Origin: Escherichia coli
GTDB lineage: Bacteria; Pseudomonadota; Gammaproteobacteria; Enterobacterales; Enterobacteriaceae
Reading direction: 5' to 3' (one strand)
NCBI RefSeq assembly: GCF_011045215.1
Contig: NZ_CP049201.1
Length of the DNA: 64,000 nt
How positions within the stretch are numbered: position 1 is the first letter of the stretch; every line of letters begins with the position of its first letter. Both the position numbers and the translations under genes were made by a program. Below are positions 3,617-59,037 of the stretch, one piece after another. Below the pieces are notes generated by a model that worked only from the letters and a program-made list of their open reading frames with translations, did no database searches and had not been told where the DNA came from.

Positions 3617-5632
3617 TTACAACACCTCGCGAACCGAGATCCCCAGACGCTGCATTCGTGACAGCAGCGTGGTGCGCTTCATCCCTAATCGTGTCGCCGC
3701 GCCACGGGGCCCGGCAACAATGCCATTGGTTTCTCGCAATACCTGAACAATGCGCTGACGTTCTTCTTCGTCATTCTCTGGCGTCGTCGGGTGCAGCAAC
3801 TGCGCCATTGAACTGCGAAGCGCTGAATCTTCATTTAGCGTCGGCAGTAAACGGCTTTGTCGGACATTTAGATGTAAATTCAGACTGTTACCACGAGTCA
3901 ACAGTACCGCCCGCTCAATCACGTTTTCCAGCTCGCGCACGTTGCCCGGCCAATCCCACGACATCAACTGGCGTAGTGCCTCGGTCGGGATGGCGTCAAT
4001 TGCGCGATTCATATGGCGCGCCATTTTTTGCGTGAAATGCTTTGCTAAAAGAGGGATATCTTCCGGACGATCGCGTAGCGGCGGCAATTCCAGTGGGAAG
4101 ACATTCAGGCGATAAAAGAGATCGCTGCGAAACTGGCGATCTTCAACCATTTGCCACAAATCACGGTTGGTGGCGGCAATGACTCTGACATTCACCGGGA
4201 TCGTTCTACTCCCGCCGAGACGCTCAATCTCCCGCTCCTGCAATACGCGCAGCAATTTAGGCTGAAGTTCTAACGGCAGATCGCCAATTTCATCGAGAAA
4301 CAACGTGCCGCCATCGGCAATTTCAAAACGACCACGATGGGTATTAATCGCACCAGTAAACGCCCCTTTGTCATGACCGAATAACTCACTTTCCAGAAGA
4401 CTGGCGGGGATGGCAGCGCAGTTGATTTTGACCAGCGGCTTGTCGCGTCGCGGGCTAAGTTGATGGATCGCTCTGGCGATCACCTCTTTGCCAGTTCCGG
4501 TTTCACCGCAAATCAACACCGTACTGTCGCTCTTCGCCACAATATCTACCTGCTGGAGCAGGTCTTCCATTGCCTGGCTTTGATAGATAATGTCACCGAC
4601 GCCCAGATTCGAAAGGAGCTGCTCGCTAAGCTGGTGGTTTTCTTGCTGCAAACTTTCCTGCAAATCGGTCATGCTACGCCAGGCATCGGCATTGCCAACG
4701 GCAATAGCGATGCGATCGGCTATGTGTTGTAGTAGCTGGCAGTTTTCCTCACGAAAGAGAGTGGAAGAGGTATGCGCCAGCAACAATGCACCCGGTGTAT
4801 GGTTGCCAAAGGTAAGCGGTATCAGGAGCGCAGATTCGCAGCCGTTAGATGCAAGTAAGAGTAATAACGGGTCGCGTTGCCAGAGAAACAGATCGTCTGC
4901 ACGGTGCGTCAAGGTCGGTTGTCGGGTTTGTAGCGTTTGTGTCAGCAATACACTGTCGCCAGGCATATTGCGTGGCAGACACGCACAATGTGAGGCAGAA
5001 AGATCGCTGCACCACAGGCTGAACTTCTCGTTCTTTCGATGATCGCCCAGTACCATACTGACTGAAGCCAGACCGAAAAAATGATGGATCTCACGAGCGA
5101 CGTCAGCGATCAGATCGTCGAGATCAAGATGTGACAGCACTGCATTAGTGATATCCACCAGTACCCGATGATGATCGCGATCTTTCTCCAGCAAACGCAG
5201 CGCCACCTGTTGTTCTTCATCATTGAGCCATGATTGCAGAACCGGGGTGATAATGCGTGCCAGCCAGTTAAACAGTGTGCAATCCTGGGGAGTAAAACGG
5301 CTGCCGTGGGTACGAATAAAGCGTAGCTCCGCCATTCCACTACTGCCGAGAAGGACGGCGTGACGCGAATAATCGACCATCTCGCCCTGATACTCTACTG
5401 TTGCCGTCACATCGCTGCCATCATCATGGTAGCGGTAATAGAAGTTGCTTTTGAGAACATGCAGTTCAATAAGTTGTACCGGGCTGAACGGCGGCGGCAG
5501 CGGGATGAAGGCGCGTAATAAAGACGCCTTGCCGTGTTTCTGCGCTAACCGCTCCGCGAGCATTCCGTTTACCGCTTCAATTGTTATTCCTTGCGGCGGG
5601 GCAAACATCGCCTCGTCTGACATAGCCATCAA
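3617..5632 (-). CDS. hyfR: Sigma54-dependent transcriptional activator HyfR (FhlA-like)
   Basis: 671-aa ORF with AAA+ Walker A GETGTGKE and the sigma54-contact motif GAFTGA ([15 protein letters not shown]). Confidence 0.9.
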
Positions 5633-5658
5633 CAGTCCTTATTAATGAGAAATCCTTC

Positions 5659-6072
5659 TCACGCAATTTTTCTGGCCATCAGATAGATGGCCGGTTCCTG
5701 CACAATTTCATCCAACAGATGAATGAATTGAATGCTACGCGCCTGCCACACAGACGTCGCGTCATCTGCCAGTGGCGCGAATGCCCGGGTCAACAGGGCG
5801 GTGTGGCTGGTGTCAATAACAATCTCACCAAAAGTCATCACCCCCAGCATCTTACGTCGGGCTTGCTCCTCTTCGACCAGTGCAAGCCAATCTTTGTATT
5901 CCGTCAGTGGGCAGCGGAAGGCGACATTCAGACAATCAATCACGCCAACGTGATGGCCGATAGCTAGCGAGTAATACATTACCTGAGAGCTGTGTTCCGG
6001 CATCTCGTCGCTACTGGCGACAAACTTTTTTCGCAGCGTCCAGAAAACAATTTCCCCGCACTCTTCAGTCAT
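5659..6072 (-). CDS. hyfJ: Hydrogenase-4 component J (HycH-like maturation factor)
   Basis: Track ORF 5659-6135; start trimmed to internal ATG ([10 protein letters not shown]...) to give the 137 aa expected for HyfJ. Confidence 0.75.
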
Positions 6073-6823
6073 GTAACCCCCGGAGTACGCGAAAGAGTTG
6101 CTGAACGATACTATTGAGACGTGGATCGTCGGCATCGCGCAACCAGGTGTTAACCCGATTTCCTGTAGGATCGTCGCTTAAATGGCGCAGGAGCCGATCG
6201 CAAATTTCTCGCCCCTGACGATAGCCCGCCAGCCGCCGCGCTTCTCGCTCAATGGCGATACGCTGTGATGGCGGGATCTGCGGCCACAACGGTTGCATAG
6301 TCACCCCGGTGGGATCGCGATAATCCACCGCGTGAATCTTCTGTTGCAGCAAACCGAGCGCCACGGCGAAACCGTGAATGGTGGCGGCCGGTGTTGGCGG
6401 GCAGCCGGGGATCCAAACATCAATGGGGACAATGGTGTCGCTGCCGCCCCAGACGCTGTAGAGATCGTGGAAAATACCGCCGCCGACGCCGCACGCGCCG
6501 TAGGAAACACAGATTTTATGATCGGGGGCAGACTCATACGCCCGAAGTGCAGGCATACGCATCGCCCGGGTGACTGCGCCAGTAAATAACAAAATATCGG
6601 CGTGACGCGGTGATGAAACAACCTTAATGCCAAAACGTTCTGCATCGAATACTGGTGTGATGGCGGCAAAAATTTCGATTTCACAGGCGTTGCAGCCACC
6701 GCAATCGACGCGATAAACGTAAGCCGAGCGACGGATATCCTGTAGCAAATGCCGCTTCATCTTTTGCGTTTGCTCGTCCAGCGTGATGGGCTGGCTGACA
6801 TGTTGTGTAAGCACTGGACTCAT
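6065..6823 (-). CDS. hyfI: Hydrogenase-4 small subunit HyfI (NuoB-like Fe-S subunit)
   Basis: 252-aa ORF with a conserved cysteine pattern ([10 protein letters not shown]...CPPTP) typical of NuoB/HycG-like subunits. Confidence 0.85.
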
Positions 6824-7365
6824 AGCTGCTCCTTAGCCACCAGCGGTACATCTGTATCGTCGTTGATCAGCGTCGCGCGTTGTTTGCACTCGGGGCAGAC
6901 GCTCGCTTGCGCCCGCAACATTTCGCGGTTTTGTGGCGCATTTTGTTGCTGTGCCAACAATTCAGCAGCCAGTGCGACGGTTTTTTGCGGGGCAAACGGG
7001 CGTTCGCAACGGCTGCAACGTTGTAGATGGAACGTCGCGCGGGTATAGAGATCGGCTTTATTGGTGACGGTCAGTTCAAAGTTATTGGTAAGCTGGATGG
7101 CTCTGGTCGGGCACACTTCTTCACAACGTCCGCAGTAAATACAACGCCCCAGATAGAGCTGCCAGGTGCGCGAATTTTGCTGGTCGTCGGTCTGGATAGT
7201 CAGCGCATTTGCCGGACAAGCACAGGCGCAGGCACCGCAGGCAATACATTGGCTGGGCATCAGGTCCGGTTTCCCGCGAAAGCCTGGGCTGACCTCCAGT
7301 GGCGCGAAGGGATATTTCACCGTCGCGGTTCCGGCGCGCATAATAGTTTTCAGTAACTTCAGCAT
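6820..7365 (-). CDS. hyfH: Hydrogenase-4 4Fe-4S ferredoxin-type subunit HyfH
   Basis: 181-aa ORF with two CxxCxxCxxxCP ferredoxin motifs. Confidence 0.85.
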
Positions 7366-7374
7366 CTTCTGTCC

Positions 7375-9090
7375 TTACTTCAGCGGCGAACGGTTACGAT
7401 CAATGCCGTAGCGTTCGATCTCTTTATACGGCACGGTTTTTGACTGGCGCTTGCGCACATCAACCAGCGTCACACGGTCGGTACAGGAGTAGCAGGGATC
7501 AAGGCTACCGATAATCAGCGGTGCGTCAGAAACGGTATTGCCGCGCAGCATGTAACGCAACACCGGCCAGTTGGCGTAGGTGGCGGCACGGCAGCGCCAG
7601 CGGAACAATTTTTGGTTATCACCGAGCATGCTCCAGTGCACGTCTTCACCGCGTGGCGCTTCAACAAAGCCCAGCGCGAATGCGTGAGGTTTATAGCTAA
7701 AGCCTTCGGTCAGCAGTGGGGTATCCGGCATGTTGTCGAGAGCAAATTCCAGCATTGCCAGCGAATCAAACGTCTCTTTGACACGGACCATCACGCGGGA
7801 GAAAACATCGCCGCCGGTGAAGGTAAACAGTGTTTTTGGAATATTGCCGTAGTCGGCGTAGGGGTGATCAAAGCGCAAATCACGGGCAAAACCACTGCCG
7901 CGGATCAGCGGCCCTACAGGGCTATAATCACGGGCGATTTGTCGGTCGAGAATGCCAATGCCCTGAGTGCGTTGTTCCATATTCGGCGTGGCAAGCAGCA
8001 TCTCTACCAGCTCCGACACGTCGGCGCGCATCTCGCGCACCAGTTTCAGCGTTTGCAGACGTTGCTCTTTGAGAATATCGCGGCGAACACCACCAATCAG
8101 ATTCAGACCGTAGGTTTTACGCGACCCGGTCAGCAATTCCGCCATCGTCATCGACTTTTCCCGCACGCGGAAAAATTGCATAAAGCCGGTATCAAAACCA
8201 ACAAAATGGCAGGAGAGGCCAAGGTTGAGCAAATGACTGTGTAGCCGTTCGACTTCCAGCAGAATCGAGCGAATGGTATGCGCTCGTTGCGGCACCTCAA
8301 TCCCCAGTGCATTTTCAACCGAGTTGGTATAGGCCACACTGTGGGCAAAACCGCAAATCCCACACACGCGGTCCGATAAGAAGGTCACTTCGTTGTAGCC
8401 CATCCGCGTTTCTGCCAGTTTCTCCATGCCGCGATGGACATAAAACAGACGGTAATCAGCATCGACAATTTGCTCGCCATCCACAAACAAGCGGAAGTGA
8501 CCCGGTTCATCGGAGGTGATATGCAGCGGGCCGACAGGGATCACCCGCGCATCGCTGTTGCCCTCATTGATAAACGGATACGTTTCGGAATCAGTCGTCG
8601 GTTCAGGGCGCAGTCGATAATCCATCGCATCTTTGCGCAGCGGATGCATATCTTCCGGCCAGTCATCGGGCAACACCAGGCGACGCTGATCCGGCAGGCC
8701 AACCGGAATCAGCCCGTACATATCGCGAATTTCTCGCTCGCCCCAGACCGCGGCAGGGACGCGCGGTGTGACTGACGGAAACTCCCGACTGTCGGCATCG
8801 ACCAGTGCCTTCACCACGATCCAGCATTTTTCGGCCCCTTCCATAGAAAGGGCATAATAAACCGCGTAATGACCGTTAAGTGTCCGCTCGTCGTTGCCAA
8901 ACAGGACCGGAAGCCAGCCATCATGTTGATAATAAAGATACTGTACAACGTCAGGCAGCAGATTGATTTTCACCGTAATGGTGACCTGTTCAGGCGTTTG
9001 TCGCTCTTCATCCAGCACCGCGCCGGGGAACTGCGTTTTCAGGGCGGCGAGAATCGCTTCGCCACGATTTGACGATGAATTAACGTTCAC
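7375..9090 (-). CDS. hyfG: Hydrogenase-4 large catalytic subunit HyfG (NiFe)
   Basis: Track ORF 7375-9135; probable GTG start at 9090 giving [14 protein letters not shown]...; NuoD/HycE-like; C-terminal DPCxxCxDR Ni-binding motif. Start uncertain. Confidence 0.8.
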
Positions 9091-10660
9091 TTTGTTTCTC
9101 CGAAACAGATGCGGTGCCTGAAGGCAAAAAATCATGCCAGGTGCTACGTTGTGCAGACAGGTCGTGCGTCCCTGAGAGGACTATAGTGGAAGCGCCCGCC
9201 AGGATCCTGATGACAGGTTGTGGAATATGCGTTCCCATCGCCAGCATCATGACCAGCAGAATCACCATTGGCGAGGTGGTCAACCAGCCGAGATCACCCC
9301 GGTTAACGGCCTGCGGCGGTTTCGCCATTAACACCCGCGCAGCCATCCGTACCAGGCCCGCCAGCACCAGCGTTAACAGCAATAACAGCAGGACGATAAT
9401 CAGCAGATGATTACGTGCCAGTCCGGCGGTAACGGTCATAAATTCGCTAAGAAAAATGTTGAAGGGCGGCATCCCTGCCAGCGCCAGCGCACCGCCGCCA
9501 AACAGCACGGCGGTAAATGGCATGATTTTAAGCATTCCGCAGACGACGTTGAGATCGCGCGTGCCGTACTTGAGCAGTACATTGCCGGAACCGCAGAACA
9601 GCAGCGTTTTTGCCAGACTGTGGTTTAAGGTGTGCAGCAGCGCGGCAAAAATTCCCAGCGGCCCGCCAATGCCTAGCGCCACCGCGACCAGTCCCATGTT
9701 CTCCACGCTGGAGTACGCCAGCAGACGCTTAATGTCCCGCTGTACCAGAATGAAAAATGCCGCCACGGCAACCGACAACATGCCGAAGATGAGCAACAAC
9801 CGGTTGGGGAAATCGCTGCCGATGGCCTGGCAAATAATGATGTAATAGCGAATCAGTACCAACAGCGCACAGTTCAGCAATACGGCGGAGAGTAGTGCGC
9901 TGACCGGACTCGGCGCTTCACTGTGAGCATCCGGCAGCCAGGCGTGCATGGGAAATAGCCCGGTTTTGGTACCAAAGCCAATTAGCACAAACACAAAGGC
10001 CAACAGCATTAATGTTGGATCAAGCAAGGACGATTGCTTAAGAACCTCGCTCCAGAATATCGCCATTTCTGCCTGCGGCATAACGCTGGCGGCGTTGGCG
10101 TATACCAGCACGGTACCGAACAGACCAAAAGCGACACCAACAGTACAAATAATGATGTACTTCCATGCTGCTTCCAGCGATGAACGCTGACCGTAAATGC
10201 CTACCAGAAACGCCGAGCTTAAGGTGGTGGCTTCGATCGCCGCCCACATCACAATCAGGTTATTGCTGGTAACAACCAGCAGCATGGTGAACAAAAACAG
10301 ATGGAAGAAACCGTAGTAATCGCACAGCGTAACGGGTGAAAGCTCGCCGTGCTCAACTTCATGACGCATGTAGCCAATCGAGTAAACACCGGTGAGAAAG
10401 CCAATCACACCAAGAATGGCGAGGAACAAACCGCCCAGACCATCAATATGAAGCCACAGTCCCGCAGCGAATATTTCTCCTGCATCAGCGGCAGTTTGGA
10501 CCACCCAGAGTGCCAGAATCAGCAGCAGTGTGATCCCTAAGCTATGTAATACTGTCACCGTGCGAGTCGCAGAGTGCCCTCGTTTCCGGCAGGCAAAACA
10601 GAGCAGCGAAAAAAGCAGCGGAGTGAGCAGGAGTAAAGCGAACATCACAGAATAACTCAT
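9080..10660 (-). CDS. hyfF: Hydrogenase-4 membrane subunit HyfF (NuoN/Mrp-antiporter-like)
   Basis: 526-aa polytopic membrane ORF in operon position. Confidence 0.85.
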
Positions 10661-10664
10661 CTCA

Positions 10665-11314
10665 TTATCCCTTCAGCGCGGTCAAGTTGTTCACGTCCAG
10701 CGTGCCGTGGGTACGCCATATTTTTCTTGCCAGTAACACCATCACAATGACGGCGAAGATGGCGTCGGTAGCGATACCTATTTCCACCAGTTCCGGTGCT
10801 CGCCAGGCAAGAAGCGCCAGCACCAGATGGGAGCCGTTTTCCATCAGGCAGTAACCAAAAATTTGCCGCAGGATATTGCGCTGGCTGACAATGCACAGCA
10901 GGCCAAGCAGAAAATGACCTAACGCTACCGCCAGCGCTGGTTTCAGCCCGGTAGCCATCGGTAGCTTCACGGGCTGAACGACAAATGCGCAAAGCAGGAC
11001 AATTAACGCGCGAGCAGTGCCATCATTGCCGGACCGAATAACGCTTTTTCCGGGATGTTCTGGGGAATATTTCGTGCAGCGTAAGTCATGATTAACGGTA
11101 CCAGCAGCACTTTGGTGATAAAGGCGCTGGCGGACCAGATCAGCAGTTGCTCTGCGGCGAACAGGCACGAGAGGGTGGCGAAAATAGACACCAGCACCAG
11201 TGACTGGCAGGCGTAAAATCCGCATGACAGGCGATAGCTTTTGACGCTAATCACAAACAGCGATGTCAGCATCATCAGTCCCGCCAGATTATTTACGATC
11301 ATAGAACCGGTCAT
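10665..11314 (-). pseudogene. hyfE: hyfE (hydrogenase-4 membrane subunit) interrupted by an apparent 1-nt frameshift near 11003-11012
   Basis: Track splits it into 11003-11314 (103 aa, ...GPAMMALLAR*) and an overlapping different frame 10665-11225 whose last 114 aa (ALIVLLCAF...TALKG) continue HyfE; 102+114 = the 216 aa I recall for intact HyfE; break lies in a gcgcgcg run. Confidence 0.6.
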
Positions 11315-11325
11315 TCATCATCTCC

Positions 11326-12765
11326 TTACTGCAACCAGGTCGCGGCGATTACGCTGGAAATCAGCGACATCACAATCAGTACAATCAGCACCAGGCGCAT
11401 TGACCCTGGCAGCGGTGCGGCATCGGCGACGGCCTCGCTCGGTTTGCCGGGGACGACGCGACCAAACCAGCGAATAAACCAGGCGAAACTGGCGACCGAT
11501 TCAATCATCAGCAGAATCATGGCGGGCAGCAGGATCCAGTACTCCACTGACAACGCAAAACCGGCAGCAAACAGCGGGAATTTACTGAAGAAGCCGTTGA
11601 ACGGCGGTACGCCGGTAATCGCCAGCGCTGCCACGCAGAAACCCACGCCTGGCAACGGCAGGGTGTGCAATACGCCACGCAGACGCGGCAACAAGCGCGT
11701 GCCGCAGCTGTAACTCAGCGCACCTGCTACAAGGAAAAACAGGCTTTTAGCGAACGCGTGGTTGACGATGTAGGCGATGCTGCCCTCCAGCGCCAGCCGC
11801 GAGCCGAAGATGGAGAGCGACAAACCGAAGAACATCCAGCCAAGTTGAGTGATGGTCGACCAGGCCAGCAACCGCTTCATATCCTGCTGTGGCAAATACA
11901 TCAGAAATCCATAAAGAATGGTGACCAGTGCCATGACCATGCCAACGCCGCCAATCACATGCGGGATATTGCCGCCGTCGATAATGGCGCGGGCAAAAAT
12001 GTAAACGCCCACTTTCACCATCGATGCGGCGTGGAGATAGGCACTGATCGGTGTTGGTGCTTCCATTGCATCCGGTAGCCACGCTTGCATCGGTAGCTGG
12101 GCCGATTTCCCCCACGCGGCAAACAGGATGCCGCCATAAACCAGATAACGTGCGTCGCCGTGTAACTCGCTCATCGCGCTAAGCGCAAACGTTCCGGTCT
12201 GCAAAAACAGCGTGGCGGCGGCAAGATACAACCCCAACGAGCCGATATGAGTGATAAGTAACGCTTTTAGTGCTGAACGCTGCGCTTTATCGCTCTGGTA
12301 ATAACTGATCAACGCCCAGGAGCAGCCGCCCGTAATTTCAAAAAACAACAACTGACCGAGCAGCGTCGAGGAGAGTACCAGTCCCGCCATCGCGCCGATA
12401 AACACCAGCAAAAATGCGTAATAACGATTCGTGCCGTTATGCGGGTGTTCGCGATTTTTATCCGTCAGATAACCCGTGGAGTAGATCGTGACCAGCAAAC
12501 CGAGAAACACCACCACAAACAGAATCAGCGTACTCACGCGATCAATGACCAGGCCAAACAATGCCACATCCCCCACGTTGACCAACGTCAACGTGACGGC
12601 AACTTTATCGGCCTGATAAAACGCGGAGATCAGCGACAACATGCACAGTGTGGTCAGCGCGGCGAACAAAACCCCCCATTCGGCGGCCCGACGTTGTGGC
12701 GAAAACGAAACGACCAGTGCGCCGATAAAAGGCAGCATTAACGTCGTCAGAGCAAGATTTTCCAT
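11326..12765 (-). CDS. hyfD: Hydrogenase-4 membrane subunit HyfD (NuoL/M-like)
   Basis: 479-aa polytopic membrane ORF. Confidence 0.85.
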   Translation of the reverse strand: MENLALTTLMLPFIGALVVSFSPQRRAAEWGVLFAALTTLCMLSLISAFYQADKVAVTLTLVNVGDVALFGLVIDRVSTLILFVVVFLGLLVTIYSTGYLTDKNREHPHNGTNRYYAFLLVFIGAMAGLVLSSTLLGQLLFFEITGGCSWALISYYQSDKAQRSALKALLITHIGSLGLYLAAATLFLQTGTFALSAMSELHGDARYLVYGGILFAAWGKSAQLPMQAWLPDAMEAPTPISAYLHAASMVKVGVYIFARAIIDGGNIPHVIGGVGMVMALVTILYGFLMYLPQQDMKRLLAWSTITQLGWMFFGLSLSIFGSRLALEGSIAYIVNHAFAKSLFFLVAGALSYSCGTRLLPRLRGVLHTLPLPGVGFCVAALAITGVPPFNGFFSKFPLFAAGFALSVEYWILLPAMILLMIESVASFAWFIRWFGRVVPGKPSEAVADAAPLPGSMRLVLIVLIVMSLISSVIAATWLQ

Positions 12766-12781
12766 ATTCCGTCAGTGCTCC

Positions 12782-13729
12782 TTACAGACCGGTTAACCAG
12801 AAGACCCATGCAAGCGCAGCAAGGCTGAAGCCAAGCCAGGTCACATGGTGAATGAGTAAAAAACGCCCGCGTGCCAGCGTGTTTTCTGCGATAGAGGCCA
12901 GTACAAAAATCAGCAAAACCTTGAGCAGCGTAACGACAAGTGAAGTCAGCAGGCAGGCGAGAGAAAGTTCTTGCGCGCGCCCAAAGGGCAGAAACAGGGC
13001 CACAAACAGTGCTGCCATCACGACCTGTTTCAGCCCCAGCCCCCATTTCGCCAGCGCCAGCCCGGCACCGGAATATTCTGTCAGCGGGCCTTCCTGTACT
13101 TCCTGTTCTGCTTCAGCAACATCAAAGGGAATTTTTCCCATCTCAATGAAGCAGGCAAAACCACAGGCCAGTAACGCCAGTACGGTGGTTAGCGGCGAGT
13201 TCCAGCCCATCGCCAGCGTATTGCTGATCATCTCGATATGCGTGGAATCCGCTATCAGTGCCAATACCAGCAGTGAGAGAATGAGCATGGGTTCGACCAG
13301 AATGCCGAGCGTCAACTCGCGACTGGCACCGACTCCCGCAAACGGGCTTCCGGTATCCAGCCCGGAAAGAGCAAAGAAAAAACGAAACAGGGCAAGAAGA
13401 TAGATAAGGGTGATCAGATCGCCGCCGCCCGCAAAAGGGGAAACGGTAATAAATAGTGGTAGGGCCATCGCCAGCACCAGCATGCTGCTGATTAATACCC
13501 ACGGCATCAGGCGGAACATCAGACCTGAAGATGTCGGCGCAACTTCCTGGCGTTTAAACAGTTTGTGGATATCGCGATAATCCTGCCAGATCCCCGGTCC
13601 GCGGCGGGAGTGCATTCGCGCGCGTATCTGCCGGGAAATACCCGTAAAAAGTGGGGTTAGCATCAGCAGAATCACGGCCTGTGCTAACGCAAAAATGACC
13701 AGATATCCGTCGCACAGAGTTTGTCTCAT
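12782..13729 (-). CDS. hyfC: Hydrogenase-4 membrane subunit HyfC (NuoH-like)
   Basis: Track ORF 12782-13750; trimmed to ATG giving MRQTLCDGYLVIF... (315 aa). Confidence 0.8.
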   Translation of the reverse strand: MRQTLCDGYLVIFALAQAVILLMLTPLFTGISRQIRARMHSRRGPGIWQDYRDIHKLFKRQEVAPTSSGLMFRLMPWVLISSMLVLAMALPLFITVSPFAGGGDLITLIYLLALFRFFFALSGLDTGSPFAGVGASRELTLGILVEPMLILSLLVLALIADSTHIEMISNTLAMGWNSPLTTVLALLACGFACFIEMGKIPFDVAEAEQEVQEGPLTEYSGAGLALAKWGLGLKQVVMAALFVALFLPFGRAQELSLACLLTSLVVTLLKVLLIFVLASIAENTLARGRFLLIHHVTWLGFSLAALAWVFWLTGL

Positions 13730-13739
13730 GGTGATTTCC

Positions 13740-15758
13740 TTAGACGGCAATAGCGATTAGCAGCACAACCAGTGCGGCGACCACATACAGGCAATAGAGA
13801 CGAAAGTCGCCGCTTTGCAGATGCTGTATTTCTTTGGCCAGCCGTTGGGTGGCGCTCACGATGGGGCGGATCACCCGCTCATCCCAGAAGGGTTCTGTGC
13901 TCTGAGCCCTGGCGGTGACGTGCGCAAGACCTTTATTTAGCCTCAGCGTAGGGTCGAGCTGTTGTCGTAGACGAAATAGCGCAGAGAAGACCACACGCAG
14001 CGGCTGCATCACGCCATTGCCTGACGGGGCCATCGCATTTTCCCAGCCGTAGCCGCATGCCCAGGCATCTCCTGTGCGACGAAACGCTGCGCGGCGCGAA
14101 CGACACCACAGCCAGTAAAGGCCAGGCAGCAAAGGCATCGCCAGTAGTAACAGCAACAGTAATGAGGGAGTGACCCGTGTATGAAACGTGCCGGGTACAA
14201 GTGCTATTCCGCTGGCGACAGTGACGGGAGGGGTATCGGTAAACGCATGGGCAATATGCATTATCTTCGGTGCCAGCCAACTGGCACTAAGCGCAATTAA
14301 TACGCAGAGTGCCGCGAGCAGTAGCATGGCGACGATCATCGTATTTGGCACTTCCTGTGCCTCTTCAGCGTGTGTACTGCGCGGCGCACCACAGAAAGTA
14401 ATACCGTACATTTTTACGAAGCACATTACTGCCAGCCCACCAGTGACTGCCAGCATTACCATAGCAATAGGACCCGCAAGTTGTAGCGCTACGGCTTCCA
14501 CACGACTTAGTGAGAACAGCGACTGCCAGGTGTACCATTCGCTGATAAAACCATTCAGCGGAGGAATGGCTGATATCGCGAGGCAACCAATCAGGCATGC
14601 TGCGGCTGTCCACGGCATCCGTTTTGCCAGTGCCCCCATTTTTTCCATGTCGTGGGTATGCAAACGCGAAATAATCGCGCCCGCGCCGAGAAATAGCAGC
14701 CCTTTGAACAGCGCATGGTTGAGCAGATGAAACAGTGCGCCGAGCAGTCCAACCACGGTGAGCAGCGGGTCGTGCAGTGACAGACCGACCATCGCCACAC
14801 CGACTGCCAGCAAAATAATGCCGACGTTTTCGACGGTACTCCAGGCCAGCAGCCGTTTGATATCCTGTTCCGCCAGCGCATATAGCACGCCCAGGAGCGC
14901 GGAGATTGCGCCGATCGCCATCACCAGAATGCCCCACCACAGAGGCAAACCCGTTTGCGCCAGCAGATCCATCGCTACTTTCAGGATGCCGAAAATACCG
15001 ATTTTGACCATTACGCCAGACATCAACGCCGAAGCGTGCGATGGTGCGGCAGGGTGAGCGCGCGGCAACCAGCTGTGCAACGGCATCATCCCGGCTTTCG
15101 CGCCAAAACCGAAAAAGGCCAGCAGGAACACCGCCGACGCCAGCCCCGGAGAAAGTGAAAGCGTGCGGAAACTGGCAAAATCGAGGCTGCCGCTTTCGCG
15201 CCCCATCAGCAAGAAGGCGATCATAATCAGCACCGATCCGGCGTGGGCGATAAAAAAGTAGAGCATGCCAGCGTTGATTGACGTTTTATCCTGCCTGGCA
15301 ATGACCAGAAACCAGGAAGACAGCGACATCATTTCAAACAGCACGATGAACCAAAAAGCGTTGTCCATCACCAGCAGGGCAACCATCGATGCGATGAAAA
15401 GATTCATAAAGAAGCCCATCGCCGCCGCGCCTTTGCCCTCGTATTCGCGCATATAAGTCAATGAATAGAGCGAACAAACCACCACAAGCAAGGAGATAAC
15501 CAGCACCATAAATGCCGAGAGGCTATCTATTCGCAGGGTTAAATCGGCAAATTCAAAAGGGGTGGCAAAACGGGCGACTAAAGTTACGCCTGCATGTAAT
15601 TGCGTAATTCCGCTGATGATGCCAATCACGCCGCCCACCAGCGATGTGATGCCGGAAAGCTTAATAGCCAGTCTGTCCAGACCGAGTAAAAACAGCGAAG
15701 CCAGACTGGCAAACAGATAGAGGATCAGCGACCAGGTTAATAATTGCAGGGCATCCAT
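13740..15758 (-). CDS. hyfB: Hydrogenase-4 membrane subunit HyfB (NuoL-like)
   Basis: 672-aa polytopic membrane ORF. Confidence 0.85.
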   Translation of the reverse strand: MDALQLLTWSLILYLFASLASLFLLGLDRLAIKLSGITSLVGGVIGIISGITQLHAGVTLVARFATPFEFADLTLRIDSLSAFMVLVISLLVVVCSLYSLTYMREYEGKGAAAMGFFMNLFIASMVALLVMDNAFWFIVLFEMMSLSSWFLVIARQDKTSINAGMLYFFIAHAGSVLIMIAFLLMGRESGSLDFASFRTLSLSPGLASAVFLLAFFGFGAKAGMMPLHSWLPRAHPAAPSHASALMSGVMVKIGIFGILKVAMDLLAQTGLPLWWGILVMAIGAISALLGVLYALAEQDIKRLLAWSTVENVGIILLAVGVAMVGLSLHDPLLTVVGLLGALFHLLNHALFKGLLFLGAGAIISRLHTHDMEKMGALAKRMPWTAAACLIGCLAISAIPPLNGFISEWYTWQSLFSLSRVEAVALQLAGPIAMVMLAVTGGLAVMCFVKMYGITFCGAPRSTHAEEAQEVPNTMIVAMLLLAALCVLIALSASWLAPKIMHIAHAFTDTPPVTVASGIALVPGTFHTRVTPSLLLLLLLAMPLLPGLYWLWCRSRRAAFRRTGDAWACGYGWENAMAPSGNGVMQPLRVVFSALFRLRQQLDPTLRLNKGLAHVTARAQSTEPFWDERVIRPIVSATQRLAKEIQHLQSGDFRLYCLYVVAALVVLLIAIAV

Positions 15759-16375
15759 TAGCGTTGCTCCTGAGTGAGGGAAAGGGGATCCTCCCCGCCA
15801 TTGGCAAACCAGCTTGCGGCAAGGCGCTGTTTTTCTTTCATCTGGCGTTGCAGTCTATCGTCGGTGATCAGCCGTAACGCCTGATTCGGGCAAGCGCGAA
15901 CGCAGGCCGGACCTTCTGGCAAGAAATCACACAGGTCGCATTTCACCGCGACGGTCTGGACACCCGGTTCCCAGCGCAGCAAAGCATGTTGGGTTGGCGC
16001 GTTTTCTTCGCCGTCTTTGAGTGAGCCTTCAGCCTGAAAAACATATTGCGCAGGGGCATTCACCGGACGGCTTCCTGAAGCGCTGATTGCGCCAAATGGG
16101 CAGACCACGGCGCAAAGCTTGCAGCCAATACAGAGGCTTTCGTTGAGTTGGATCGCATCATCCCTCTGGGAGATGGCATTGACCGGGCAGACCTGCAGGC
16201 ACGGGGCTTCCTCACAGTGATGACACACGACAGGGGCAGTGAGTGTTGACGTCTTCGCCAGGGCCAGGCGCGGGTGTTGCTGTAAACCTTGCGTTTTATG
16301 CACGTCCGAACAGGCAGCGAGACAGGTATTACATCCTATACACCACAGTGGTTCGGCCACCACAAAGCGGTTCAT
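15758..16375 (-). CDS. hyfA: Hydrogenase-4 4Fe-4S ferredoxin subunit HyfA
   Basis: Track ORF 15758-16414 trimmed to MNRFVVAEPLWCIGCNTC (205 aa); multiple CxxCxxCxxxCP clusters. Confidence 0.85.
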   Translation of the reverse strand: MNRFVVAEPLWCIGCNTCLAACSDVHKTQGLQQHPRLALAKTSTLTAPVVCHHCEEAPCLQVCPVNAISQRDDAIQLNESLCIGCKLCAVVCPFGAISASGSRPVNAPAQYVFQAEGSLKDGEENAPTQHALLRWEPGVQTVAVKCDLCDFLPEGPACVRACPNQALRLITDDRLQRQMKEKQRLAASWFANGGEDPLSLTQEQR

Positions 16376-35820: not shown

Positions 35821-35910
35821 AGCGGGACATGTAGGCCGGATAAGACGCTGTAGGCCGGATAAGACGCGTCAGCGTCGCATCCGGCAATCAGCGTCCGGCA
35901 ATCAGCATCT
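35821..35910. repeat. REP/BIME array (ypfG-tktB intergenic)
   Basis: Tandem gtaggccggataagacgc units and inverted gccggatgcgacgctgacgcgtcttatccggcc-type sequence. Confidence 0.65.
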
Positions 35911-35921
35911 GCCGGTCAGTA

Positions 35922-49238: not shown

Positions 49239-49420
49239 TGCCGGATGCGACGCTTGCCGCGTCTTATCCGGCCTACGGGATTGCACATGTAGAGCGGATA
49301 AAGCGTTCACGCCGCATCCGCCAGTGGCGCGGTGCAATTGCCGGATGCGACGCTTGCCGCGTCTTATCCGGCCTACGGGATTGCACATGTAGTGCGGATA
49401 AGGCTTCACGCCGCATCCGC
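49239..49420. repeat. BIME/REP array between eutG and eutH
   Basis: Two identical 54-bp copies tgccggatgcgacgcttgccgcgtcttatccggcctacgggattgcacatgtag (49239-49292, 49339-49392), each followed by a gcggataa..gccgcatccg unit. Confidence 0.8.
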
Positions 49421-52079: not shown

Positions 52080-52172
52080 ATACTGTAGTTATCAGGCGTG
52101 GCGCTGGGTTGCGGGGTGTTAGTGGGATTATATCCGGCTGTGTATCCGGTCGGGGTGATTGGTCTGTATAGC

Positions 52173-52198
52173 AAAACCCGGCGCGGGGCCGGGTGAAC
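52173..52198 (-). terminator. Rho-independent terminator after island gene 52201-52764
   Basis: Minus strand reads ACCCGGCcccgcGCCGGGTTTTG; an identical hairpin recurs at 53821-53843. Confidence 0.55.
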
Positions 52199-52200
52199 TA

Positions 52201-52764
52201 TCATTCAGGGAACAAGTTGATTTGAAGCAAACTGCCAATGTATTTACCAGTGCTTTTAATTTTTCGCTTTGATGGCTTACACGAATTCAGGTTGACACCA
52301 GCCTGGCTAGATATTGGCTTGTATTGCCGCTCCGCCAGTACGATCAGGTCTGCCGCGTCTTTTAGCTTTCCATCGTTAGCCAGTTCCAATGCTCGATCCG
52401 CCATTTGCCCGCATTGTTGAATCAGCTTAAGTTGCGATACCTCCAGTCGCAATTGCTGGATTCGTTCTACCACTTTCGCCCTAATGCGCTTAGTTTCACG
52501 CATTCCCATTCTTAATGCCTGGTTGCCAGTAAGTGAGTAAACCTCTTTTTCTTTCCTGAAGTTTGCGGCTTTACCGTCAGCTTGGACGCGCATTTTATGC
52601 GCTTCCAAGAATTCGCCCTCCAATTCATCCCTGATCTTCGCGTTGAATCTGTCGTTCTTGAGTTCATTTAACCCTTCCGCCTTGCGGATCTGGTTGATTA
52701 ACTCCAACAATTCATCACTGCGGATACGCCACTCGCTATCAACCTGTACCAAGTCAAACATGTT
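52201..52764 (-). CDS. Hypothetical island protein (about 187 aa from ATG MFDLVQVD; track ORF extends to a TTG at 52854)
   Basis: ORF track; SD-like gggag upstream of the internal ATG; coiled-coil-rich; no confident family assignment. Confidence 0.5.
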   Translation of the reverse strand, partial: NMFDLVQVDSEWRIRSDELLELINQIRKAEGLNELKNDRFNAKIRDELEGEFLEAHKMRVQADGKAANFRKEKEVYSLTGNQALRMGMRETKRIRAKVVERIQQLRLEVSQLKLIQQCGQMADRALELANDGKLKDAADLIVLAERQYKPISSQAGVNLNSCKPSKRKIKSTGKYIGSLLQINLFPE

Positions 52765-52920
52765 GTTGCTCCCGTTTTGCTGCCATAGGGCAACGGCTCG
52801 CCAGCCTTTATCACCTCCTTTAGTTGTTGCGATTCTTAACTGAATGGTTATCAAAACGCTGCGTTAATATCATTGATATGTATCAAATTTGTTTTGTGAC
52901 GCGACAATGCCTTGTGAATA

Positions 52921-52948
52921 TCAATAAAAAACCCAGCGCTATGGCTGG
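52921..52948 (-). terminator. Rho-independent terminator after island gene 52995-53723
   Basis: Minus strand CCCAGCcatagcGCTGGG followed by TTTTTTATTG. Confidence 0.55.
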
Positions 52949-52994
52949 GCTTCTCTTGATGGCTGGTTTTGTAGCTAATCGTTGGCTTTAAGGG

Positions 52995-53723
52995 TTAAGC
53001 AACAATATTAATCCCGCTCCTTGTCGCTGCCTCTTTGGCAATTTTCCCCTCGTCCTCCAGTTTAGCTAACGCCTTGTACATCCAGTGGCGGCCCGGTGCG
53101 CCATGCAGCTTGCCATCTTTGCCGATCTTACCGAACGCATGTAACGCCAAATCGTCGATAGTCCCCTTGTATCCGCCTTGCTCCTTAAGCCATTGCTCAA
53201 GCTGTTCTACTTTGAATTTTGCCGGACGTCCGCCAGCCGCTTTTTGTTGTTTAGCTGGTTCTTCTGCAATATCGCTTTTGTTGTTTAAGTCCGTCATGAC
53301 TGGTTCTCCTACAATAGCGTCGCCCTTGGTCTCGATTTGTTGATTAACTGGTTTGTCTACAATATCGATTTTGTTGTTTAGCTGGTTTTTCAACATATCA
53401 ATCTCAGCCTTTAGCGCCTCGTTTTCTCTGGCTAGTTCTTCGCAACGCTTGATAAATTTTTGTTCCATGCCGTCCGGGCTATCAACGTGCGCCGTACCCA
53501 TTACGATCTTCCCGTTGCTATCGAAGATGACAGCTTGCCAACCGACTGCGGCGAGCATTTTAAACACATCATCAGCGGTCTTGTTTGTTGTATCGCGACG
53601 CCCTTTAAACTTGTGGCTAGCAGCGCCTTTGCCTTTGAAGCCCATTGCCTCAGCGACATCTTGCCGCGTCATCTTGCGAGCGCGCTTGTTCATGCCTAAC
53701 TCAACCCAATCCATGTATTCCAT
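52995..53723 (-). CDS. Hypothetical island protein, basic N-terminus plus coiled-coil and internal repeats
   Basis: 242-aa ORF; repeated NNKIDIVDKPVNQQ / NNKSDIAEEPAKQQ segments, mirrored by imperfect DNA tandem repeats around 53280-53400. Confidence 0.55.
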   Translation of the reverse strand: MEYMDWVELGMNKRARKMTRQDVAEAMGFKGKGAASHKFKGRRDTTNKTADDVFKMLAAVGWQAVIFDSNGKIVMGTAHVDSPDGMEQKFIKRCEELARENEALKAEIDMLKNQLNNKIDIVDKPVNQQIETKGDAIVGEPVMTDLNNKSDIAEEPAKQQKAAGGRPAKFKVEQLEQWLKEQGGYKGTIDDLALHAFGKIGKDGKLHGAPGRHWMYKALAKLEDEGKIAKEAATRSGINIVA

Positions 53724-53820
53724 ACATTACCTCATTTTGTCGCTAAACGTTTTGCTTTCTAATTTATCAACAAAAAAGCGGGTGATGGTAGCCGCTTTGA
53801 TGGGGAAGTTGACAGGGATC

Positions 53821-53843
53821 AAAAACCCGGCGCGGGGCCGGGT
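53821..53843 (-). terminator. Rho-independent terminator (second copy of the 52173 hairpin)
   Basis: Minus strand ACCCGGCcccgcGCCGGGTTTTTGATC, just downstream of gene 53861-54091. Confidence 0.55.
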
Positions 53844-53860
53844 ATTAGCAAGTTAGATGA

Positions 53861-54091
53861 TTACTGGGTATCGCTGTCAGAAAGTAGTCCAATTGATTTA
53901 AAGAATTTCATCACATCCTGATAGCGATACATGACGCCCCGCCCGGTTCCCAGCACATCAACAGGGTCGGGGAATGGAGTTCCGTTCTGTTCCCATTTCT
54001 TACGCCACGAATAAAACGTTCCCCTGCTAATTCCGCCCAGCATCCGGCAGATGGCAGGGCGGCTAAGAAGGATTACTTCATTTTTATCCAT
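53861..54091 (-). CDS. AlpA/excisionase-like HTH DNA-binding protein
   Basis: 76 aa; LSRPAICRMLGGISRGTFYSWRKKW resembles the AlpA-family HTH. Confidence 0.5.
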   Translation of the reverse strand: MDKNEVILLSRPAICRMLGGISRGTFYSWRKKWEQNGTPFPDPVDVLGTGRGVMYRYQDVMKFFKSIGLLSDSDTQ

Positions 54092-54110
54092 TGTTTAATC
54101 TCCCGTGTGT

Positions 54111-54299
54111 TTATTTTGCGTAGATTAAGGCAAATGCTCTTTTGGCTTTGCTTAGTTCGTATTCGCGTTTTTCTATGATTGCCATCAGTTCTTGTGCGGT
54201 GGCTGGCACGCCCGCTCTTATCAGCGCAATCTTAGTATCCATAGCGCACACTCTTTCACGCACCATATCGAAGATAATTTCCGCTCTATCGTGTTTCAT
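54111..54299 (-). CDS. Small hypothetical island protein (62 aa)
   Basis: ORF track; co-directional and closely spaced with the AlpA-like gene. Confidence 0.4.
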   Translation of the reverse strand: MKHDRAEIIFDMVRERVCAMDTKIALIRAGVPATAQELMAIIEKREYELSKAKRAFALIYAK

Positions 54300-54502
54300 G
54301 ATTTCACCTCATATTTGTTGCTAAACCTTGTAAACCCTTGTTTGACTACAAAATACACCTGGTTAAGCGACTGATAAAATGATTTAGGTCAATTTATTGG
54401 TTGATGATTTATGTCTGATTGGATTTGTCTACAAATGGCAGGTTAGTCAACAAATGATGAAACCAGGGAATGGCGGTTATAATGTCAGCGGGGATTGTGA
54501 GA

Positions 54503-54545
54503 AAGGCCCGGGTAGGTTGCTAACTGCCTGGGCCTTTATTTTTGG
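54503..54545 (+). terminator. Plus-strand rho-independent terminator candidate inside the minus-strand gene array
   Basis: aaaggcccgggtagg..cctgggccttt hairpin (about 14 bp stem with two G-U pairs) followed by atttttgg; on the minus strand no U-tract follows. Confidence 0.45.
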
Positions 54546-54648
54546 CGCGTGTACGTGAAATCTGGAAAATTTGCAGGGTAGTTGTTGAGGGATTTTTCGC
54601 GTAGGAGCGTGAAGGGTCCGCCAGTCATCGCCCTGACGTAGCGGTGAA

Positions 54649-55050
54649 TTACTTGCGAGGCTCACCCATCGGCCAGGCACCTTCATTGCGACGATAACCA
54701 ATCCGGTACTCTTCCGGCAGCGGCAAGCCCTGCTCACGATATGGACGCAGATCGAAGCCAAAAACAGGATCGTCGTCGTAGGCGAGGAATAGCCCGGCAG
54801 GCTCTGCCACGCGTTCGATAATCAGTTCCCCATCTTCAACGAAGAAGATCAGATTATCGCGAAAGTCCGTTACCTCACTGACGTGATAACATTCGGCATG
54901 TGCGTCCAGCCAGGCTTCTCGGTATTCCTGAATCTCGGCTTCTGACCATGTTGAAACAGGACGCTCCCAAATTCCCAGGCTGGATTTGCCCTGGCGGGAG
55001 AATAATTTTGCCTCTTTGCTCTGCTCTGGTTTTCTGTTTAAAAAGCTCAT
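54649..55050 (-). CDS. Hypothetical island protein (133 aa)
   Basis: ORF track; SD ggagaa upstream of ATG; start overlaps a TAA of an upstream open frame (TAATG). Confidence 0.5.
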   Translation of the reverse strand: MSFLNRKPEQSKEAKLFSRQGKSSLGIWERPVSTWSEAEIQEYREAWLDAHAECYHVSEVTDFRDNLIFFVEDGELIIERVAEPAGLFLAYDDDPVFGFDLRPYREQGLPLPEEYRIGYRRNEGAWPMGEPRK

Positions 55051-55186
55051 TATTCTTCTCCTTTGAACGGATTGTTCTTGCTCTCTAATAACTTAGCGCG
55101 ACCCAGTAACGTCCGGGCAAGCGCCTCCGCCTTCCTTAGCCTAAGCCCTGCGTCTTCTGCGTCCAGATCTACATTCCTGATAGCCT

Positions 55187-55450
55187 CTACAGCCTGCTCC
55201 GCTGCGTCCGGGCGTGAATCCACTTAAATATGCCGATATGCTCACGAAAGTCTGGATGCTCATATTGCCAGCGGCAGATTGTTCTGAAGCTCGGCATGTC
55301 AGGCATGTTGCCAATCTCTCTGAGACTATGGCCTTCAGCTACCAGCAAGCAGATTTCTTCAGCGATAGCGACCCCATACTTAGCGCTTTTTCTGCTTAAA
55401 CTTGTGACATCAACAGGTAAGTTATTGATTTCTTTATCATCACCCTTCAT
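55187..55450 (-). CDS. Hypothetical HTH-like island protein (87 aa)
   Basis: ORF track; SLREIGNMPDMPSFRTICRWQ segment is HTH-like; preceded by the 11-bp repeat array. Confidence 0.45.
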   Translation of the reverse strand: MKGDDKEINNLPVDVTSLSRKSAKYGVAIAEEICLLVAEGHSLREIGNMPDMPSFRTICRWQYEHPDFREHIGIFKWIHARTQRSRL

Positions 55451-55522
55451 AATTACCCCCGAATTGATAGCGAATTGATAGCGAATTACCCCGAATTACC
55501 CCCGAATTACCCCCGAATCACC
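55450..55522. repeat. Array of seven 10-11 bp direct repeats (gaattaccccc / gaattgatagc)
   Basis: taattaccccc, gaattgatagc x2, gaattacccc, gaattaccccc x2, gaatcacc, read directly from sequence. Confidence 0.9.
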
Positions 55523-55527
55523 ATCAT

Positions 55528-55809
55528 TTAACCCTCGCCTACGTCTGCGTCGATGCTTGCTAACTGGCTGTGTAGATCGCGTTCAATCATTTTTACCTTT
55601 TTCACAAAATCCCTTTCCTCGGCGGTGGCGGGCGCGCCCTGGGCTATGTTTTTCGTGAGGTCGTGGAAAGTGCCGAAAACATAAAGGGAGAACAGCCTTA
55701 ATTGTTGCCGCTTCATTGGCAAATCACTGTTGCTATGTTTGATCTCAGCGACGCCTTTCGAAATAACACGGGCCATCCCATGACAAATTCTTAACGTAAG
55801 CGCAGACAT
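55528..55809 (-). CDS. Hypothetical island protein (93 aa)
   Basis: ORF track only. Confidence 0.4.
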   Translation of the reverse strand: MSALTLRICHGMARVISKGVAEIKHSNSDLPMKRQQLRLFSLYVFGTFHDLTKNIAQGAPATAEERDFVKKVKMIERDLHSQLASIDADVGEG

Positions 55810-55930
55810 GATATTTACTCCCCGACTGGTATAATGAACGTGGTTTTAAACGTTGCTATTTGCTAACCATTTAATCTGTTAACTCAATTTCGCATTGTTG
55901 GCCCGGCACGAACACCGGGCTTTTCTTTAC

Positions 55931-56272
55931 CTATTCGAAATAGCTTCCAATATCCGGTGTCCGGGTATCAGTTTTCCGGGTCGGCTCGAAGTACGATTCC
56001 AGATCCGGCGTTTTCGGCCCACGCTGGGCGTTGGCGGCGGGTTGCTTTTCTTCTGGCTGTTCCGGCTGTTTACTACCAAATCGGCGCTCCAGTTGGTCCA
56101 TCAGCACTACCATCATTTCCTGGACCAGCTTTTCATCGGCTTTATCAAGGTTCTCCAATACCATCGCCATCCCTTTGCGGAATTTAAGCTCAGCGTCGTC
56201 CGGTTCCGGTGCTGATTCGTTTGCTTTAACTGCCAGGGCGATCCGGCGTTTTGCTTCATCCAAAAAATTCAT
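55931..56272 (-). CDS. Hypothetical acidic island protein ending in SYFE motifs (113 aa)
   Basis: ORF track; C-terminus DLESYFEPTRKTDTRTPDIGSYFE. Confidence 0.5.
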   Translation of the reverse strand: MNFLDEAKRRIALAVKANESAPEPDDAELKFRKGMAMVLENLDKADEKLVQEMMVVLMDQLERRFGSKQPEQPEEKQPAANAQRGPKTPDLESYFEPTRKTDTRTPDIGSYFE

Positions 56273-56277
56273 TTTGT

Positions 56278-56721
56278 TTATTCCCCCATGTGGAAATAGT
56301 CATCTAAGCGGCGATTAAACTCGTCGCTGCCATCGAAATATTCACGGATACTTTTATTGACCAGATCATCACCGTCGAAATACTGGCGCGTGAAATCGTC
56401 CAATTCCCCATCGAAGTATTGACGTGTGAAATCGTCTAATTCCCCTTCAAAATATTGACGCGCATCAGGCGCTCTGTTTGGCGCTGTAGCAATCTCAGAT
56501 TGATTGCCCTGTAACTTATCGACGTTTGCTAAATACACGCCCAGTGAGCTGTTTGTTCCCATTACCGCAAGCATTTTCCGGCGATCTGCCATGTTCGGCG
56601 CGAGCGATGATAATTGAGCTTTAATTTTGTCCACTTCCTGATTAACAATACGGTCAATCAGTGGTTGATTCGTGCGAATAATTTCCTGTGCCAACTGGCG
56701 AATATATTCTTTGCGTGTCAT
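56278..56721 (-). CDS. Hypothetical island protein with tandem QYF[ED]GELDDFTR repeats (147 aa)
   Basis: ORF track; encoded by 36-bp tandem DNA repeats at about 56376-56463. Confidence 0.5.
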   Translation of the reverse strand: MTRKEYIRQLAQEIIRTNQPLIDRIVNQEVDKIKAQLSSLAPNMADRRKMLAVMGTNSSLGVYLANVDKLQGNQSEIATAPNRAPDARQYFEGELDDFTRQYFDGELDDFTRQYFDGDDLVNKSIREYFDGSDEFNRRLDDYFHMGE

Positions 56722-56739
56722 TTCTTATCTCCGTTCATC

Positions 56740-57123
56740 TCATTTCTGTAAAAAACCCATACCGTGGCCCAGGCGATTTGAAATTTTCCCGGCAAGCATC
56801 CGGCGAATATGTTTTTCGTTGATGATGTCGTGAGTGACCGGATCTTCACCTTTCATACATTCCGGCATCTGGTCAAACAATACGGAAGCGCCTTCATCAA
56901 TAATCTCAGTTAAGACTGCTGGCAGCATATTAATGATGCGTTCTGCTTCGTCGTTCATTGCTTTATCGAACGCTTTTTTATCCATTGCTTCGGCGGATGG
57001 TTTGTAATTGTCGCCAGTCAGGTTAAGGTAAGTGTTGTTTGGGTGATACATGGCATTCACTCCTTTTACTTTGATTGTTGCGATTTCTTTGTTTTTGTTA
57101 ATTGTGGTGCCTTTGACTTTCAT
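56740..57123 (-). CDS. Hypothetical island protein (127 aa)
   Basis: ORF track; ATGA start/stop overlap with the upstream HNH-like gene. Confidence 0.45.
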   Translation of the reverse strand: MKVKGTTINKNKEIATIKVKGVNAMYHPNNTYLNLTGDNYKPSAEAMDKKAFDKAMNDEAERIINMLPAVLTEIIDEGASVLFDQMPECMKGEDPVTHDIINEKHIRRMLAGKISNRLGHGMGFLQK

Positions 57124-57539
57124 GCTGCTTCTTCCTTCAATAATTGTGGCAATTTGCCTGTTAGTTCGATTTCTTCATTAATAGATGCAAGTAACTGTCT
57201 CAGTTTGCGATGTAATAGCTGGTGACGCTCTCTCGGCATTTTTACCAGGTTGCTTAAGCGGTTATTCTGCGGATCGTAGTCCCGGTGATGGATATCATAT
57301 TTTCGCTCATCGTAAACACCGTAGCACCATAACCAGGCAGCCTTTTCTATTGTCATGCAGGTACGTTTTCCGTTGCTTAAACAAATGGTTATACTCAGGT
57401 GACCGCGATGTTTTTCGTTTAAGCTGCCTTTAATTACCTGGCCTGTGCTGCGGTTGTGAAATAAACCAGTTTCAGGGTCGTAGTGATATTTCTGTCGTAA
57501 TATATCAACTGATAACCGTAGTCTTGTAAGATTGTCCAT
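57120..57539 (-). CDS. HNH-family endonuclease-like protein
   Basis: 139 aa; AAWLWCYGVYDERKYDIHHRDYDPQNNRLSNL resembles the phage HNH_3 pattern (from memory). Confidence 0.55.
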   Translation of the reverse strand: MDNLTRLRLSVDILRQKYHYDPETGLFHNRSTGQVIKGSLNEKHRGHLSITICLSNGKRTCMTIEKAAWLWCYGVYDERKYDIHHRDYDPQNNRLSNLVKMPRERHQLLHRKLRQLLASINEEIELTGKLPQLLKEEAA

Positions 57540-57571
57540 GATGTTCTACCTCAATGTGATTGCTGTGTTAA

Positions 57572-57757
57572 TTATCTTTCTTCTTGTGGCCTATTCAGCC
57601 AGGCCTCGATCTCGCTACGCCAGAATAATAAACGACAATTTCGCGGCGTAAATGGTTGGGGTATTGTCTTATCTTTTAATAGCCATCTTCGAATCGTTCT
57701 TGTTGATACCCCCGCTATTAATGCGAAAGCTCGCAGATCTATAACTTCATCTCTCAT
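57572..57757 (-). CDS. AlpA-family transcriptional regulator
   Basis: Internal ATG with SD gaggt; MRDEVIDLRAFALIAGVSTRTIRRWL...LFWRSEIEAWL matches the AlpA HTH signature; the track's N-terminal extension is low-complexity repeat translation. Confidence 0.6.
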   Translation of the reverse strand: MRDEVIDLRAFALIAGVSTRTIRRWLLKDKTIPQPFTPRNCRLLFWRSEIEAWLNRPQEER

Positions 57758-57780
57758 GTTCTTACCTCGATTAAAAAGGA

Positions 57781-57839
57781 CCGCCCCCAGGGAAAGAAGA
57801 AAGAGGAAAGAGGAAAGAGGAAAAACTTCCTGGAGGCGG
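57781..57839. repeat. Homopurine heptamer repeat (GAAAGAR x4) inside an 11-bp inverted repeat
   Basis: ccgcccccagg [agggaaagaagaaagaggaaagaggaaagaggaaaaa] cttcctggaggcgg; 24-82 nt upstream of the AlpA-like start codon. Confidence 0.85.
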
Positions 57840-58537
57840 GTAATTCGGATTCCTTGAATCAATATCCCATGTGATACTTAATATTATAAAGGGCGGCGGG
57901 CTATGTCGCTATTTTTGCCATAGTGTGACACCATTAATTTATTAACAAAAAGTGCTATTTATTAAATCTTTTTTCGGCAGGTGCAAGAAAAATAATTGCG
58001 ACACGGTAGGGTAGCGGGCGATAATAATCATGTAAGGAGTAGCCACCTTACGCCTCCAAATGTGATCGATAAAAATAATAGTCTCAATTCTTTCTCCCGC
58101 TTCTCGGCGGTTTTTTTGCCTGCAATCACACATCAAAAAAACACATCGAATTGATATGCCTTTAAAACGCAATATAACGCATTTTGACGGCCTTAATTTT
58201 TGCCTATCCACTCGGAAGCGTAAGCCTGTTTTGATTCGTCTGGCGTGGAATGGTGCGGCGGTAATATCAGATCTCAGCGTTCTGTGTGGTGGGATGGAAT
58301 AGCCTGGCAGGATCTGCGTGTGATTTCATTCATCCAACCTTGGATGAATGGTCCGATCTGGTCAGTAGTCCGGCACAAATAAAAAGCGCCTGCGGGCGTA
58401 GCAGACGCTTTGTGTACAGGCTTATCAGTACGGGATGTGCACGAATGATTATACCACCCTCAGAAAAACGTTTGCTTTTGCACTTAAACGGATAAGTGGT
58501 ATTTCTTGGTCTTCATTGGTTTTAGCTCACCATAGGC

Positions 58538-58765: not shown

Positions 58766-59037
58766 GGCAAAAACTCATTGAAATTGGATACCCTTAGAAC
58801 GCTCTCAAACGCTCCGTAATGCGATGAGAATTTTACCTAAGCAAGTGTAGCTCTTTATTAGTTTTATGATGCCGTAGGCCGATAGAAGGTGCGCTCTCTG
58901 AAGTTTCATTGTCTATCAGTGGTGGGTAATGCTGCCTTTACTATTGGCGTCAAGAAAATCACTGGTGTAGATTGGGCGAATAGTTTACTATTCAAACAAG
59001 GCACAATGGCCTTAGCGGATTGATGTCAGGAGATACC

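Follow-up and report, generated by a model that had tools for sequence, protein, structure and literature searches.

In Pectobacterium atrosepticum, a mutant lacking hyfDEF produces as much H2 as before or slightly more (Finney et al. 2019, PMC7384014), and the hyf operon of Escherichia coli has been summarized as poorly expressed and lacking an accessory gene (PMC7384014). The wild-type E. coli HyfE (WP_000147987.1; b2485 in K-12), a small membrane subunit of hydrogenase 4, is encoded between hyfD and hyfF, and its residues 127-216 match the NuoK/MrpC-like Pfam family PF00420 (E = 8e-18). Here we analyzed a window of 64,000 nucleotides from E. coli contig NZ_CP049201.1 in which hyfE occupies the same slot in the operon (Table 1). 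When its two reading frames are joined, the window hyfE shows 100% amino acid identity to wild-type HyfE over residues 1-102 and over residues 103-216, but a G is missing in codons 102-103 and the 216-aa protein cannot be encoded. Thousands of genomes have an annotated hyfE that shares 99.4-99.6% nucleotide identity with this gene, and all 216 of the 216 residues can be recovered across the two frames. Our analysis indicates that this strain very probably carries a genuine, strain-specific loss-of-function frameshift in hyfE.

Alignment of the window with K-12 MG1655 and strain D8 revealed one gap only in hyfE, where the wild type reads CTCGCGGCGTTA and the window reads CTCGCGCGTTA. The original prediction for this stretch, made from the letters of the DNA alone, had proposed that a single-base indel placed 102 N-terminal and 114 C-terminal codons in different frames, and had suggested K-12 hyfE for comparison. 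That comparison returned exactly one gap, a 1-bp deletion; the codon counts were exact, with both segments identical to wild-type HyfE, and so were the coordinates given for the frame junction. On the coding strand, CTC GCG GCG TTA in the wild type has become CTC GCG CGT TAA, with one G of a GG doublet gone, which corresponds on the plus strand to the loss of one C of the wild-type ...acgCCgcgag... at ~11008/11009. The affected codons are those of Ala102-Ala103 (GCG GCG), and residue 103 is now Arg instead of Ala. The minus-strand ORF at 11314..11003 encodes 103 aa, of which residues 1-102 match wild-type HyfE exactly and are followed by Arg and TAA, while the other frame, read to the normal stop at 10667..10665, holds A103-G216, all 114 residues as in the wild type. 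As a 216-aa protein is rebuilt perfectly from the two frames, the arrangement cannot be due to chance. The window does not contain hyfE as a single uninterrupted 216-codon frame, since a premature TAA follows codon 103. The expectation that the junction would lie in a GC repeat held only in part: the plus strand does carry a cgcgcg run at 11007-11012, but this run was produced by the deletion, and the ancestral GCGGCG offers only a GG doublet. A 186-aa ORF at 10665..11225 was also considered as a gene and was rejected because it opens with 72 residues that come from reading through the N-terminal coding region in the wrong frame.

Table 1. Coordinates of hyfE, its two parts and the surrounding operon within the window.
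Feature	Coordinates	Strand	Remarks
hyfABCDEFGHIJR operon	3617..16375	-	intact save hyfE; premature stop located upstream of hyfF-hyfR
hyfE	11314..10665	-	between hyfD (12765..11326) and hyfF (10660..9080)
hyfE, 5' part	11003..11314	-	102 native codons, Arg CGT (11008..11006) and premature TAA (11005..11003)
hyfE, lesion site	11007..11012	-	plus strand reads cgcgcg; single gap at 11008-11009 in the alignments of every comparison
hyfE, 3' part in the other frame	10665..11006	-	codons A103-G216 (114 native residues) and stop
Internal ATG (Met120) of hyfE	10956..10958	-	gene-caller start for the 97-aa C-terminal product

The remainder of the operon is in good order. Translation of hyfA, hyfB, hyfC, hyfD, hyfF, hyfG, hyfH, hyfI, hyfJ, and hyfR, together with focB, gave full-length products with no internal stop, and the translated lengths match the annotated lengths in OkiPb01695, bearing out the earlier statement that every hyf gene other than hyfE is intact. 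Within hyfE itself the PF00420 domain is still encoded, but in a different frame from the start codon.

To place this allele among those of other strains, we considered complete genomes and larger sequence catalogues. Among 5,426 complete E. coli genomes, about 4,290 possess hyfE. A 71-nt query centered on the deletion junction had no match at 99% identity or above in any of the 4,292 hyfE-positive complete E. coli genomes (0/4,292), and the top matches were all at 98.6% (71/72 positions, a single gap). Among ~15 billion catalogued proteins, the exact 103-aa product was present on a single contig, Logan SRR11014969_61. On all contigs that were read and that carry a HyfD or HyfF identical to that of the window, hyfE encodes 216 aa; together with the absence of the junction from the hyfE-carrying complete genomes, this ruled out a lesion shared by a lineage. 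The closest relative that we found, GCA_011318535.1, differs from the window by 4-5 substitutions in 7.5 kb, and its hyfE shows no substitution relative to that of the window and only the extra base. The mutation appears to be recent, as the missing base is the sole change separating the window hyfE from the intact allele of its nearest relative. Judged by these sequence comparisons, the lesion is both private to one strain and recent.

The alternative that survives best is that the lesion is an error of sequencing, assembly or polishing, the organism's own hyfE being an intact 216-codon frame from which a base was dropped in the consensus. We regard this as unlikely. A lesion that none of more than 4,000 other genomes shares is what a random error would produce, and the genome was built in part from Nanopore R9.4 reads, which are indel-prone. 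Against this, Unicycler, with which the genome was assembled, takes its consensus bases from Illumina short reads, and the context is a GG doublet rather than a long homopolymer, with no Dam or Dcm motif seen by eye. A further argument comes from Logan SRR11014969, in which a raw-read assembly by another pipeline yielded a 60.8-kb contig that is 100% identical to the window over 12,135 nt, deletion included; SRR11014969_61 is also free of mismatches over 6,312 nt. The lesion was thus reproduced from reads, and we infer from the uniqueness of the allele and the perfect identity that SRR11014969 is an Illumina run of the window's isolate, as a long, perfectly identical k-mer contig is not expected from R9.4 reads. 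A literature search for this run returned no match, and it is absent from the supplement of PMC7643976. The deposited and Logan assemblies probably share one library, in which case they are independent in software but not in data, and the evidence comes from one isolate.

Comparison with the nearest genomes over 50 kb points in the same direction. Relative to OkiPb01695, its closest complete genome, the window shows 135 substitutions over positions 1-25000 and one indel, which is the hyfE deletion. Over positions 25001-50000, where PapM-32-1 is closest, indels lie at ypfG-tktB, after maeB, at eutM-eutN, and at eutG-eutH. All of these are intergenic, which is the pattern of purifying selection and real evolution rather than of random consensus errors. 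The hyfE deletion is the sole coding indel over the 50 kb, and a generally error-prone assembly was rejected on this ground. Of the two possibilities originally raised, an error or a real inactivation, the latter is favored by the loss of 1 bp in comparison with every other hyfE of E. coli that was examined, by the same sequence in the Logan assembly, and by the lack of any other coding indel in this region.

The HyfA and TmcA alleles of the window correspond to QIF12689.1 and QIF12696.1, and the strain appears to be E. coli PapRG-04-4. A Shigella origin had been considered, as none of the complete E. coli genomes gave a match above 99.6%, and was set aside in view of these two alleles. PapRG-04-4 came from a Guinea baboon sampled in the Gambia and is the one isolate that represents ST8826 (PMC7643976). 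It was sequenced on an Illumina NextSeq, for which the supplement column appears to give 34x, and with Nanopore R9.4, and assembled with Unicycler (PMC7643976). The mutation could have arisen in laboratory culture. In the supplementary table of PMC7643976 the phylogroup of PapRG-04-4 reads B2, in a column that looks misaligned (two ST1204 isolates are given D and E). The B2 assignment looks doubtful, as hyf is present and the nearest neighbors of the strain are bovine, pig, and otter isolates.

Several other features of the window were recorded alongside the hyf region. At 35821-35920, between ypfG and tktB, small insertions relative to PapM-32-1 are clustered and probably represent variation in REP or other repeats. 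The eutG-eutH intergenic region contains, at 49292-49373 on the plus strand, a match to the Rfam family naRNA4 (CssrE, a REP-derived nucleoid-associated RNA; 65.3 bits). Between eutA and eutB, a CPZ-55-like integrative element spans 52100-61700, and includes the intZ integrase (60439-61644) along with numerous small ORFs. Its best complete-genome match has 81% query coverage and 92.6% identity, making it a fairly divergent variant, and an ORF at 59369-59887 is positioned about where a YafO-family toxin gene is found in the related island of strain C41, a likeness of position only.

We also considered whether the frameshift is real and HyfE function is nonetheless kept, either because ribosomes shift frame or hop on the GCGCG or because HyfE now works as two pieces, of 103 aa and of 97 aa from Met120. 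This is highly improbable. Recoding is formally conceivable, as GCG-CG permits perfect +2 re-pairing of the alanine tRNA and would yield HyfE minus Ala103. However, the shifted arrangement is conserved in no other genome, and the codon after Ala102 is CGT, a common codon, followed by the strong stop TAA-T, so that no pause is expected to drive slippage. Reading the sequence directly, we found no X XXY YYZ motif and no CUU-UGA or prfB-like motif at the lesion site. The two-piece version draws on the observation that the 97 C-terminal residues, the product called by a gene caller from Met120, hold the whole of PF00420, and that the distant homologues MrpC, MbhG, and MbsG, of 114-137 aa, occur as separate subunits in complexes of known structure. 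Among solved structures, a search returned none of hydrogenase 4 or HyfE, and gave weak matches only, to these same three proteins. Yet there is no Shine-Dalgarno sequence before Met120 or Val116: anti-Shine-Dalgarno pairing in the 20 nt before these codons is -0.2 and +1.2 kcal/mol, respectively, while the 12 true starts in the operon range from -5.1 to -9.3 kcal/mol and the background mean is -2.4 kcal/mol. Moreover, the frame is interrupted within a hydrophobic segment (residues 93-113, judged by eye to be the fourth) rather than at a domain boundary, and the N-terminal piece would be malformed. That HyfE now exists as two polypeptides, an N-terminal three-helix fragment and a stand-alone NuoK/MrpC-like protein beginning at Met120, is likewise highly improbable.

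Two related readings were rejected: programmed frameshifting, as none of the 4,292 genomes shares the junction and there is no slippery context; and a phase-variable repeat locus, as the ancestral GCGGCG is a GG doublet that varies in length in no other genome. Internal re-initiation giving a NuoK-like protein is not supported, as it lacks a Shine-Dalgarno sequence.

A strain-specific frameshift in hyfE is in keeping with the wider condition of the operon in E. coli. Approximately 21% of complete E. coli genomes lack hyf altogether, and in a sample of 10 hyf-positive complete genomes, evenly spaced along the similarity ranking, 5 had one or more hyf genes flagged as pseudogenes by PGAP. The two strains used for comparison above are themselves affected, with an internal stop in hyfB of OkiPb01695 and a frameshifted hyfF in D8. 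Certain lesions are shared, position for position, by isolates that are unrelated, namely a -1 change in hyfB at window-equivalent position 15167 (six genomes), a -1 change in hyfI at window-equivalent position 6476 (two genomes), and a deletion of ~205 bp in hyfD at window-equivalent positions 11800-12006 (two genomes). These recurrent lesions were probably inherited within lineages, as their sites are not long homopolymers. The hyfE gene has also been broken elsewhere. A nonsense change, Q85* (CAG -> TAG), is present on 126 contigs from many samples (e.g., Logan SRR23081458, 1501-2151), showing that a whole lineage is without HyfE, and in some of these genomes hyfD is broken as well. Another 10 contigs carry a frameshift after residue 122, and the 97-aa C-terminal HyfE product has been called on 131 contigs. 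Such frequent breakage of hyf fits relaxed selection on hydrogenase 4 in E. coli.

The loss of one G from the GG doublet would be most simply explained by replication slippage. Translation would then stop after 103 residues, in the middle of the fourth hydrophobic segment, and the NuoK-like C-terminal half of the protein (residues 127-216) would no longer be translated, and the strain presumably makes no functional HyfE. Hydrogenase 4 in this strain, if it is expressed at all, would be without HyfE. The lesion may also have consequences downstream, as ~340 nt of untranslated hyfE mRNA would precede hyfF. Because of this untranslated stretch and because the ribosome-binding site of hyfF is the weakest in the operon (-5.1 kcal/mol), expression of hyfF-hyfR may fall, which could come about because translational coupling is lost or by Rho-dependent polarity. 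The physiological cost is probably small, as E. coli expresses hydrogenase 4 poorly and a related bacterium evolves H2 without HyfDEF. By the same analogy, hydrogenase 4 could stay active without HyfE. For annotation purposes, hyfE in this genome should be labeled a frameshifted pseudogene and not two hypothetical proteins.

Compared with other hyf pseudogenes of E. coli, which arise from single-base frameshifts, nonsense mutations, and small deletions in one or a few genes of a conserved operon, the lesion in the window is of the same kind. It differs in that its position in hyfE has not been seen in other genomes and it is so far confined to one isolate, whereas several other hyf lesions are common to many genomes. 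The window hyfE is an ordinary strain-private pseudogene in an often-degraded operon. The other relevant comparison is with the FHL-2 of P. atrosepticum, in which the hyfDEF deletion likewise removes HyfE while the core HyfB, HyfC, HyfG, HyfH, and HyfI are retained (PMC7384014). In contrast to that mutant, the strain studied here loses HyfE only, and HyfD and HyfF are still encoded. The two also differ in the nature of the lesion and in the host, as the P. atrosepticum mutant carries a clean in-frame deletion, while the window carries a frameshift with possible polar effects in E. coli, in which hyf is poorly expressed.
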